DNA of 64,000 bases from Escherichia coli. GTDB lineage: Bacteria > Pseudomonadota > Gammaproteobacteria > Enterobacterales > Enterobacteriaceae. Location of the stretch: the NCBI RefSeq assembly GCF_003334255.1, contig NZ_QOWU01000002.1; one strand, written 5' to 3'. The notes under the pieces are model-generated. The model made no database searches. It saw only the letters and a program-made list of their open reading frames with translations, and had not been told where the DNA came from. Shown piece after piece: positions 56,073 to 59,406 of the stretch. The translations under genes were made by a program, and so were the position numbers. How positions within the stretch are numbered: the first letter of the stretch is position 1; every line of letters starts with the position of its first letter.

Positions 56073-57488
56073 TTATTTCAGCCCCAGAGCGGCTTTCATG
56101 GTGTAGAAGAGATCGGTCTGGTCGGTCAGTCCAACAACATTGGCGGCATGCGGGCCATACGCCGCAATACGCAACTGACTGCCGGTATGTTCTTGTGAAT
56201 CCTCTTCGGAGTTCCCGTAACTCATCACCATCACTGCGCCATCTTTGGTATTTAGCGCCTGGGTGAGGCCCGGAGCTTTGGTATCCGGCGCAACAATCTG
56301 GCTGGCGTGGGCGTGATCAGCGGTGACTATGACCAGCGTGTTACCCTCCTTTTTAGCGAATTCCAGCGCCCGTTGTACGGCTTCATCGAGATCGACCGTC
56401 TCGCCAATTTGCCCACAAGGATTCGCAGCATGATCCTGTTTATCGATTGACGCACCTTCAACTTGCAGGAAAAAGCCTTTCTCATTTTTACTCAACAATT
56501 CAATGGCTTTGTCGGTCATCTGCGCCAGGGTTGGTACACTGTCATTACGTTGCGGATTTGGCGTACAGGTGACTGCGGGCTTATCGATATTGCCATGGTA
56601 CGTTGCTTTCGGTCCTAGCCAGCGCACTGGCATATTGCCGTCAGCAAACAGGCCAAGCAGGGGTTTTTGCTGATTCGCTTCCGTCACCGAATTCAGTGAG
56701 GCAGCATCGCTCACCAACTGATAACCACGCGCCTGTGCCTGTTCACGCAGCGTTTTTCCCTGCCATTCACCAGCGGTTGCCGTTTCAGCAAAGGTTTTTG
56801 CGCCGCCGCCAAGCGTAACGTCGGCACGAGCGTTAAGCAGCTGTTCGGTAATCGATCCTTTTCCGCCTTTTTCCAGAGCGTTACCCGGACATTTTTCACT
56901 GGTCGCGCTCGGACCGTAGCATTTGCGCGAGGTCACATGTGCCACCAGCGCAGCGGGCGTGGCATCCTGCAACTCTGCGGTAGAAACGTTACCGGTCGCC
57001 AGACCTGCGGCTTTTGCCATTTCCAGAATCGTTGGGTGATCTTTTTCGTGAATATCGACGCCCAGCGCGCCGTTATAGGTTTTGACACCGGTTGACCAGG
57101 CGGTTGCTGATGCAGCCGAGTCGGTGACGTAGTCCGGTTTGCCGGTTTTTTTATTCAGCGCATAGTGAGTGTATTGCCCGGTAAGCGGTAAGGCATCTAT
57201 ACCTTTAAAAAAGCCGCCCGCACCTTCGGCATAATTACGTGCGGCAGTAATTTCCGAGTCCCCCATCCCATCGCCAATCAGCAAAATAATATTTTTTGCA
57301 GGTTTATCGCTAAGAGAATCACGCAGAGCGGCAGTCTGATCACCCGTTAAACGGCGAGCACCGCCGGGTGCAGTAATATCGCCCTGAGCAGCCCGGTTTT
57401 CCAGAACAGGCATTTCTGGTGTCCGGGCTTTTGTCACAGGGGTAAACAGTAACGGTAAGAGTGCCAGTGCAATAGTGCTTTGTTTCAC
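56073..57488 (-). CDS. phoA: Alkaline phosphatase
   Basis: Track ORF 56073-57557 trimmed by 23 codons to a GTG start giving (M)[31 protein letters not shown]; active-site region DSAASATAW; 471 aa; Pho box about 60 nt upstream. Confidence 0.93.
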
Positions 57489-57550
57489 TTTATTTTCTCC
57501 ATGTACAAATACATTAAAAAATAAAAACAAAGCGACTATAAGTCTCGGCC

Positions 57551-57568
57551 GTGACAACTTTATGACAG
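57551..57568 (-). promoter_or_regulatory. Pho box (PhoB binding site) in the phoA promoter
   Basis: Sense-strand CTGTCATAAAGTTGTCAC, a near-perfect Pho box, about 65-80 nt upstream of the phoA GTG. Confidence 0.75.
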
Positions 57569-57588
57569 CTGTTGAAAAGATTAACTTT

Positions 57589-57849
57589 TTACTGACGAGG
57601 ATGCTTCAATAACTTCTTTACGTAATCGCGCAGCAGCTCCGTATCGTCGTCAGGAATGCTGGCATCGGGCTTTACCTCGTACAGCGCCCCCTCTACCTGA
57701 TCAATCAACCGCTGTTGGTCATTTTGCGCCATATTGCGAAGCATTGCAGTGACGATAATCTCCAAAGCTTCTACCTGCGCACACAGTTCTTTCGACTCTT
57801 CTTCTTTTTGGGCAAGCTTAAATAACAACTCAGCAATGAGATTTTTCAT
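57589..57849 (-). CDS. iraP: Anti-adapter protein IraP
   Basis: 86-aa track [43 protein letters not shown]. Confidence 0.95.
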
Positions 57850-58311
57850 GTCTGTATTTCCTTATCCAAAGTATGGAGAAGTTAACATTATGTTTCACAA
57901 CTTCATAGTGTCTGGAAGTATTATTTTTATGACAAAGGAAATACTTTGCGCAAATATTTTTTGTTTGATTACCAGCGAAACGTTTCTCTTATTTAAATAA
58001 TTACCCACACAAAATATAGGCTTTTAATTATCAACCTTTATTATAAATAAAAGTTATGAAATATATTCTCTTCGTTAACTTATAATTAAGAGAAAAAAAC
58101 TCACCGCATGGCCATTTAAGCCAGGAATAAATTAGCTTCCCGTTCATCATTTTTGTGATCTTGCGCACATCTTTGAGATAACGCACTTTCTTCACCAGTA
58201 CGTTGCACGCTTTGTCAGCAGAAGATTGCAACAATCTTTCAGAAGGCCGCGAATCCCCCGTTTTGTCGTGGTAATGTATGCACTTTGTGTTAGACGGGAT
58301 AGGTTTTTAAG

Positions 58312-59406
58312 ATGGAAAAACTGCGGGTAGGAATCGTTTTTGGTGGTAAATCAGCGGAACATGAAGTGTCTCTGCAATCGGCAAAAAACATTGTCGATGC
58401 CATTGATAAAAGTCGCTTCGACGTTGTGCTGCTGGGCATTGATAAACAAGGGCAATGGCACGTCAGCGATGCCAGCAATTATCTGCTAAATGCAGACGAT
58501 CCTGCCCATATTGCGTTGCGCCCTTCGGCGACCAGCCTTGCGCAGGTGCCAGGTAAACATGAGCATCAGCTTATCGACGCGCAAAACGGTCAGCCGTTGC
58601 CGACGGTGGATGTCATTTTCCCGATTGTCCACGGTACGCTGGGCGAAGATGGTTCCTTGCAGGGAATGCTGCGGGTCGCCAATTTACCGTTTGTAGGTTC
58701 TGATGTTCTGGCTTCAGCAGCCTGTATGGACAAAGATGTCACCAAACGTCTGCTACGCGATGCCGGGCTGAACATTGCGCCATTTATTACCCTGACGCGC
58801 GCCAATCGTCACAACATTAGTTTTGCCGAAGTGGAGTCTAAACTGGGGTTACCACTGTTTGTAAAACCGGCTAATCAGGGCTCTTCTGTTGGTGTCAGCA
58901 AAGTAACCAGTGAAGAACAGTACGCAATTGCCGTCGATCTGGCGTTCGAGTTCGATCATAAAGTGATCGTTGAGCAAGGGATCAAAGGTCGTGAGATCGA
59001 ATGCGCAGTTCTGGGCAACGACAATCCGCAAGCCAGCACCTGTGGAGAGATCGTACTCACCAGCGATTTCTATGCCTACGACACCAAGTACATTGACGAA
59101 GATGGCGCGAAAGTGGTAGTTCCGGCAGCCATTGCGCCAGAAATCAACGATAAGATCCGGGCGATTGCCGTTCAGGCTTATCAAACGTTGGGATGCGCAG
59201 GCATGGCGCGTGTAGACGTGTTTTTAACCCCAGAGAACGAAGTGGTGATCAACGAGATCAACACCCTGCCTGGCTTCACTAATATCAGTATGTATCCGAA
59301 GCTGTGGCAAGCCAGCGGTCTGGGTTACACCGATCTGATCACACGTTTGATTGAACTGGCGCTGGAGCGTCACGCTGCGGATAACGCATTGAAAACCACA
59401 ATGTAA
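58312..59406 (+). CDS. ddlA: D-alanine--D-alanine ligase A
   Basis: 364-aa track [36 protein letters not shown]; ATP-grasp fold. Confidence 0.97.

Follow-up and report, generated by a model that had tools for sequence, protein, structure and literature searches.

Growth and stress survival in enteric bacteria are balanced through the level of RpoS, which is guarded from degradation by three known anti-adaptors, IraP among them. Here we examine the divergent spacer between iraP and ddlA, together with its transcription-factor sites, in a 64,000-nucleotide stretch of Escherichia coli DNA (contig NZ_QOWU01000002.1; hereafter the window). The iraP promoter is reported to be activated by ppGpp/DksA (Bougdour and Gottesman 2007; Girard et al. 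2018) and, in Salmonella, iraP is reported to be activated by PhoP (Tu et al. 2006). The ribose repressor RbsR also bears on RpoS: two independent recent screens found RpoS lowered by its loss, with the mechanism left open or assigned to an mRNA sponge. In Salmonella, a search for mutants growing rapidly on succinate hit both iraP and rbsR, and deletion of rbsR lowers RpoS protein with rpoS transcription unchanged, which the authors ascribed to an unknown indirect post-transcriptional or post-translational route. A transposon screen in E. coli grouped rbsR with rpoS, and rbsR deletion there nearly abolished RpoS-dependent gadB expression; the one mechanism proposed is that de-repressed rbsD mRNA titrates DsrA, acting as a sponge, and lowers rpoS translation.

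A sequence-only reading of the window had flagged the spacer as AT-rich, typical of curved or nucleoid-protein-bound DNA, holding the two back-to-back promoters and two spurious open reading frames (ORFs). As flagged, it is an ordinary promoter-bearing intergenic region with artefact ORFs; on closer view, the comparative data mark it as a mosaic in which two transcription-factor sites, both well conserved and unstudied, are directed towards iraP. That reading overlooked the mosaic structure that the loss of two genes produced here, along with a strong CRP site and an RbsR-type operator that is close to perfect. We consider it probable that the spacer combines a ddlA promoter, an iraP control region with an RbsR-type operator and an orphaned CRP-dependent promoter, both ORFs being spurious (Table 1). 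The two protein-binding sites could link sugar availability to RpoS stability.

The claimed extent of the spacer is exact, running from one gene end to the other. Its sequence is 100% identical to that of K-12 MG1655 and is found in 5423 of 5426 complete E. coli genomes. The phoA-iraP-ddlA region is reversed in the window relative to K-12, such that the NC_000913.3 coordinate equals 459235 minus the window coordinate, and that of U00096.2 is lower by 776; this offset was verified by the coordinate of a site predicted by FITBAR. An Rfam scan of 57000-59000 at E<=1 gave no match.

The mosaic is evident from a comparison of 80 iraP loci, one per species. A short ddlA-iraP spacer occurs only in Escherichia (about 450-462 bp) and in three Citrobacter sp. 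(about 600 bp), while in Salmonella, Enterobacter, Lelliottia, Kosakonia, Cedecea and others the distance is 1.7-2.4 kb and accommodates one or both of two genes on the iraP strand. The first encodes a 227-aa Extensin-like_C protein (PF06904, E 1e-53), the second a 403-aa MdtG-like MFS transporter (NF007372, 543 bits, which does not reach the curated cut-off of 571). Most relatives among the 80 species carry the pair between ddlA and iraP, and Escherichia has neither gene; since Salmonella and genera further removed have both, the simplest interpretation is that Escherichia lost them. The blastn matches follow the same divisions: most genera conserve 58230-58311 beside ddlA, the match breaking off sharply at 58230; the stretch from 57850 to about 58082 is conserved upstream of iraP in Salmonella and Citrobacter; and the middle of the spacer has matches only within Escherichia, apart from weak ones in the three short-spacer Citrobacter. 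Homology of the junction segment to other genera stops at both of its sides. The 57-bp segment beyond the CRP site is placed differently by two MAFFT alignments, and when aligned locally to the extensin-like gene region it did not outscore shuffled sequence. A tblastn search with the two lost proteins found no remnant in the Escherichia or Citrobacter spacers. An intermediate form is seen in C. amalonaticus S646 (locus L012, 1384-3000), which keeps the extensin-like gene and the CRP site and has lost the transporter. The Citrobacter loci span the stages of loss, from both genes (L015, L016, L019) through the extensin-like gene only (L012) to neither (L009-L011); every stage being present in this genus, either the loss was repeated or the region has passed from one lineage to another. 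From these alignments, the E. coli spacer is a mosaic non-coding control region left by the loss of both genes.

The orphaned promoter is the clearest product of this loss. In genomes with both genes, a strong CRP site lies in the gap that separates the two, some 130 bp before the transporter start codon, and the alignment indicates that 58129-58172 of the window is homologous to this CRP-dependent promoter, matching both its CRP site and its -10 element in Salmonella, Citrobacter, Lelliottia and Enterobacter. The E. coli sequence TCACAAAAATGATGAACGGGAAGCTAATTTA is homologous to TTTCACAAAtaTGATGAACGGGAAGATAAAATA, which lies downstream of the transporter CRP site in other genera. The hexamer at the class II -10 position is TAAAAT in other genera, CAAAAT in Salmonella and TAATTT in E. 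coli, and homology ends just past it, where the deletion begins. By score, the site itself, TGTGAtcttgcGCACA, is one of the top two among ten window sites. In a 2026 preprint (Footprint-seq), ttTGTGAtcttgcGCACAtct is reported as a new CRP site with a Kd of about 1.2 nM in vitro, centered at 401077 and assigned to 'ddlA / iraP'; this sequence is window 58154-58169. Among Escherichia, 73-82% of columns are invariant in the CRP site and in the 22 bp leading to the -10, against 49% and 33% in the two flanks, and the CRP site varies only in its central spacer, the half-sites being spared. Such a conserved block between variable flanks looks like selection rather than slow decay.

Now facing iraP, the orphan promoter would most likely give a cAMP-CRP-dependent, long-leader iraP transcript starting near 58121. 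If active, it would provide a cAMP input to iraP in Escherichia, and a transporter promoter conserved after the loss of its own gene and facing a new one would represent regulatory rewiring by gene loss. Two observations weigh against such activity. Two Escherichia lineages have G in place of the -12 T of the orphan -10, and Cappable-seq data, examined for the iraP strand in glucose-grown cells, contain no start site near 58121; the missing start may reflect growth on glucose, where CRP is largely inactive. Both would be expected if the CRP site were an inert relic or decoy that binds CRP in vitro and yields no transcript, or that acts on ddlA from about -120, an alternative that also draws on the junction just downstream of the orphan -10 being the least conserved part of the spacer, and on the preprint associating the site with 'ddlA / iraP' only. 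We regard this as rather unlikely. A relic does not account for the contrast between the block and its flanks or for the avoidance of the half-sites, and the three Citrobacter that also lack both genes keep a CRP site at the equivalent position. A location at -120 is unusual for activation by comparison with class I and class II CRP promoters. The same three Citrobacter carry a further CRP-like site, also strong, with the sequence CAATGTGATTATTAACACAAAG, immediately before the distal iraP promoter (L009, about 2884-2905; equivalent positions in L010 and L011); E. coli has no counterpart at that place.

The second site lies within the AT-rich half of the spacer, 57850-58082, which the alignments identify as the ancestral iraP control region. 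Across genera, the most conserved block upstream of iraP is GAGAAACGTTTCGCT, which reads CAGCGAAACGTTTCTCTT on the plus strand and has the core AAACGTTTCGCT. It closely resembles the K-12 rbsD operator, a perfect palindrome (CAGCGAAACGTTTCGCTG) whose end lies 13 nt upstream of the rbsD start codon: the two agree at 16 of 18 positions, 14 of them consecutive (the exact 14-mer CAGCGAAACGTTTC), and it is the only site in the 64-kb window with fewer than four mismatches to that operator. In Escherichia, 17 of its 18 columns are invariant. Upstream of rbsD in K-12 there is also a weaker RbsR-like half-palindrome, ATGTAAAACGTTTCGAGG, with 6 mismatches, about 80 bp before the main operator (L083, 442-459).

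When a box was called at 5 or fewer mismatches, it was found at a fixed distance from iraP in 58 of the 80 loci, compared with 0-2 of 78 in control regions. The distance from its center to the iraP ATG is 129-133 nt in 48 loci and 116-121 nt in 10; where the distal -10 block could be located, the box lies either 49-52 or 37-40 nt from it, an indel of about one helical turn. Such a change in spacing is expected of a protein that has to stay on the same side of the helix with respect to RNA polymerase. The box is kept in Klebsiella oxytoca and C. koseri, where the upstream neighbor gene differs, and therefore belongs to iraP. Relative to the distal and the proximal start site, its center lies at -65.5 and -109.5, respectively, and a position upstream of both promoters fits activation better than occlusion.

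These observations suggest a mechanism in which ribose-free RbsR would bind the box on a fixed helix face and assist the distal iraP promoter; in the presence of ribose, IraP would fall and degradation of RpoS by RssB/ClpXP would rise in consequence. That RbsR directly controls iraP through the operator at -65.5, and that ribose thereby sets RpoS stability through IraP in many Enterobacteriaceae, is a tentative proposal to which we give somewhat less than an even chance. If true, it would supply the missing mechanism for RpoS-low rbsR mutants, beside or instead of the rbsD sponge, and a conserved RbsR-type operator before iraP offers a direct and testable route from RbsR to RpoS. No paper linking RbsR to the iraP promoter was found in a literature search for RbsR with iraP, yaiB or ddlA.

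Several points count against the proposal. The rbsD mRNA/DsrA sponge could explain the rbsR phenotypes without iraP, 22 of the 80 iraP loci are box-free, and a LacI-type protein sitting on the box might equally stop read-through that comes from upstream. The purH, add and udk genes are reportedly secondary RbsR targets, and the best matches upstream of them have 7-8 mismatches, which is the background level. The secondary targets are reported to have a role in nucleotide metabolism. Genomic SELEX with RbsR (Shimada 2013) may already list the iraP box; had the box been missed there, this may be considered odd for so good a match.

The palindrome might instead be bound by another LacI-family protein, such as PurR, Cra, MalI or an unstudied paralogue, or RbsR might act there as a roadblock or repressor. 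LacI-family operators share the common core AAACGTTT, one half-site of the iraP box is degenerate (AAGAGAAAC against CAGCGAAAC), and the ancestral box lay between the transporter gene and iraP, where a read-through roadblock would make sense. Even so, the alternative is unlikely in our view. The good half-site, CAGCGAAAC, equals the rbsD operator over 9 of 9 positions, and the PurR and Cra consensus sequences differ at specificity positions and have 5-9 mismatches overall, compared with 2-4 for the RbsR operator in most loci. Repression further predicts more RpoS in rbsR mutants, and the opposite is reported, though the rbsD route confounds this comparison.

The iraP promoters are placed by published data. 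Cappable-seq reports iraP start sites at U00096.2 400543 (score 298; window 57916) and 400587 (score 168; 57872), with a weak third at 400561 (score 3.3; 57898), and on the iraP strand of the spacer it gives no start site further upstream than 57916. The start at 57916 comes after the conserved block ATAAAAATAaTAC, and the ATAAAaATAnTAC block of the distal promoter is conserved across genera. The -10 of the proximal promoter was read from the sequence and its start taken from Cappable-seq; all 9 columns of this element are invariant in Escherichia, and TGaTAACGT is conserved across genera. The supplements of SMRT-Cappable-seq do not mention ddlA or iraP. A scan for consensus promoters and terminators returned hits no more often than in shuffled sequence and was set aside; its lone hit on the iraP strand, CAGACA-16-CATAAT, fits neither mapped start site. 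The transcript from the distal promoter, and only this one, includes an 8-codon upstream ORF (57862-57888, minus strand; ATG TTA ACT TCT CCA TAC TTT GGA TAA, MLTSPYFG) whose stop codon overlaps the iraP Shine-Dalgarno sequence TAAGGA. By our own reading of the alignment, other genera have ATG or GTG and an open frame of 7-8 codons at the same place, a conservation that is ambiguous because the same bases make the proximal -10.

On the other side, the ddlA-proximal block is conserved beside ddlA over about 20 genera, and in their alignment TTG(t/a)CGTGgTA(a/t)(t/g)(g/t)TAT is conserved before the gene. It includes the predicted extended -10 of ddlA, TGgTAATGT (58269-58277; TG at 58269-58270, hexamer TAATGT at 58272-58277), which is the sole deeply conserved promoter-like element for ddlA and is invariant in Escherichia. 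The start site is predicted near 58282-58284, with a leader of about 30 nt, and its status as a prediction counts against the overall picture of the spacer. This promoter probably lies outside the AT-rich tract, placing one of the two promoters off-tract. The sequence-only expectation of divergent promoters in AT-rich DNA thus holds for the iraP starts at 57916 and 57872, which are inside the tract, and fails for the -10-like element of ddlA. A direct repeat, CGCTTTGTC (58208-58216) and CGTTTTGTC (58259-58267), has copies 51 bp apart, the second belonging to the conserved ddlA promoter block.

Base composition divides the spacer in the same way. Its overall GC content is 0.34 (0.516 for the window), and the strong AT-richness that had been claimed is a property of the iraP-side half, 57851-58110, at 0.27, where the lowest 100-bp value, 0.18, falls at 57989; on the ddlA side, GC is 0.44 for 58101-58311. 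At scales of 100, 200 and 260 bp, 57851-58110 is the most AT-rich stretch of the window, and the remaining 64-kb sequence stays more than 0.02 away from these values (fraction of positions at or below, 3e-5 to 6e-4). The distal AT-rich tract is homologous to iraP-upstream DNA of Salmonella and Citrobacter, with moderate conservation (0.56 invariant). The NagC site predicted within it by FITBAR (57996-58018) is poorly conserved (0.38 invariant, with indels), and conservation gives it no support. An RNA structure at 57990-58123 on the minus strand (-31.6 kcal/mol, z = -3.45 in E. coli) was rejected as a conserved structure: z is -0.1 to -1.3 in three other Escherichia and -1.6 on the opposite strand, the strength of the E. 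coli fold arising from several AT-rich inverted repeats. In strain Ec-U7, an IS1A lies within the AT-rich tract at about window 58070 (locus L084, 2289-2986).

The sequence-only reading took all of this as a generic AT-rich region, curved or bound by H-NS/Fis, with only two back-to-back promoters. The tract being the AT-richest of the window, the AT-rich DNA upstream of iraP in 76 of 80 species, and the IS1 insertion in at least one strain, as expected of AT-rich targets, all agree with that reading, which we nonetheless judge improbable. Conservation occurs in discrete islands that match specific sites and is not spread through the tract, and the likely ddlA promoter lies outside it. Nor were the data favorable to curvature: in a crude test, AA/TT dinucleotides lacked significant 10-11 bp phasing, the power observed at 9.5-11.5 bp being reached by 37% of shuffled sequences.

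The non-coding, regulatory character of the spacer stood up to analysis, with iraP start sites inside the AT-rich tract and both small ORFs spurious on a conservation check that found broken frames and no excess of third-position changes. The 67-aa ORF is labeled 'hypothetical protein' by the NCBI pipeline in most of about 5,400 complete E. coli genomes, is missing from the curated K-12 annotation, and has homologues in Escherichia and Shigella only. Each of the other six Escherichia lineages has a frameshift or in-frame stop in it, the frame being broken or shortened to 9-39 codons, and its variable columns number 28/30/28 by codon position. The 88-aa ORF is likewise interrupted by in-frame stops or frameshifts in other Escherichia, with 12/9/4 variable columns, the third position being the least variable. 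Both are chance open frames in AT-rich DNA. That the 67-aa ORF, or its conserved start MMNGKLIYSW, is a real Escherichia-specific small protein has in its favor the pipeline annotation and the 10 codons following an internal ATGATG, near-invariant in Escherichia, yet is very improbable given the different lineages that break or shorten the frame, the even spread of substitutions over codon positions, the absence of a visible Shine-Dalgarno sequence upstream of either start and of a Cappable-seq start site upstream of the ORF, and the coincidence of the invariant stretch with the CRP-to--10 block, which in other genera is kept as non-coding DNA before the transporter gene. The 'hypothetical protein' placed here in thousands of E. 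coli genomes is, on the comparative evidence, an over-prediction to be dropped. Many database copies of this 67-aa 'protein' are marked 'partial', and insertions or assembly breaks may be common here.

Table 1. Features of the iraP-ddlA spacer and its bounding genes, in window coordinates.
Feature	Position	Strand	Details
iraP	57589-57849	-	Gene bounding the spacer
ddlA	58312-59406	+	Gene bounding the spacer
iraP-ddlA spacer	57850-58311		462 bp; whole spacer, non-coding
Proximal iraP promoter	57872-57887	-	Extended -10 TGtTAACTT 57887-57879; start 57872; 23-nt leader
Distal iraP promoter	57916-57934	-	-10 region TGTCATAAAAATAATAC; start 57916; 67-nt leader
RbsR-like operator	57973-57990		CAGCGAAACGTTTCTCTT on + strand; center 57981.5
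Distal AT-rich tract upstream of iraP	57991-58082		GC about 0.2; includes FITBAR-predicted NagC site
Junction segment	58083-58128		Escherichia only; lowest conservation in spacer, 0.33 invariant
Putative orphaned CRP promoter of lost MdtG-like transporter gene	58129-58172	-	Now points at iraP
Putative orphan -10 TAATTT	58134-58129	-	Predicted start site 58120-58122
CRP 22-mer	58151-58172		Core TGTGA-N6-GCACA 58154-58169; center 58161.5
57-bp segment	58173-58229		Escherichia only; 0.49 of columns invariant
ddlA-proximal block	58230-58311	+	82 bp, GC-normal; predicted ddlA promoter; Shine-Dalgarno GGATAGG
67-aa ORF	58031-58234	-	WP_001300163.1 in record inspected; spurious
88-aa ORF	57734-58000	+	Antisense to iraP start; spurious

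Each element of the spacer may be set against a described system. The iraP promoter activated by ppGpp/DksA is the same locus, with two start sites less than 70 nt from the iraP ATG; in the literature that could be searched, outside which the original papers fall, neither the RbsR-like box nor the CRP site has been described there. The likeness to the PhoP-activated iraP of Salmonella is a lineage-specific transcription-factor input upstream of the same core promoter; the PhoP input is reported for Salmonella, whereas the RbsR-like box extends over Escherichia, Salmonella, Citrobacter, Enterobacter, Klebsiella and others. With the RbsR operator of rbsDACBKR, the iraP box shares the 18-bp palindrome of the LacI/GalR family, the same central CG and an identical half-site (CAGCGAAAC), and it differs in the degeneracy of the other half-site (AAGAGAAAC). 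The rbsD operator sits directly before the start codon, whereas the iraP box lies about 65 bp upstream of the start site, a placement that suggests activation or phasing-dependent control rather than simple repression. The orphan promoter resembles class II CRP promoters such as galP1 and melAB, in which the site lies near -41.5, in having a -10-like hexamer and a predicted start 39.5-41.5 bp from the center of the CRP site. Unlike these promoters, the gene that it served has been deleted in Escherichia, and the orphan faces the iraP control region 270 bp away.

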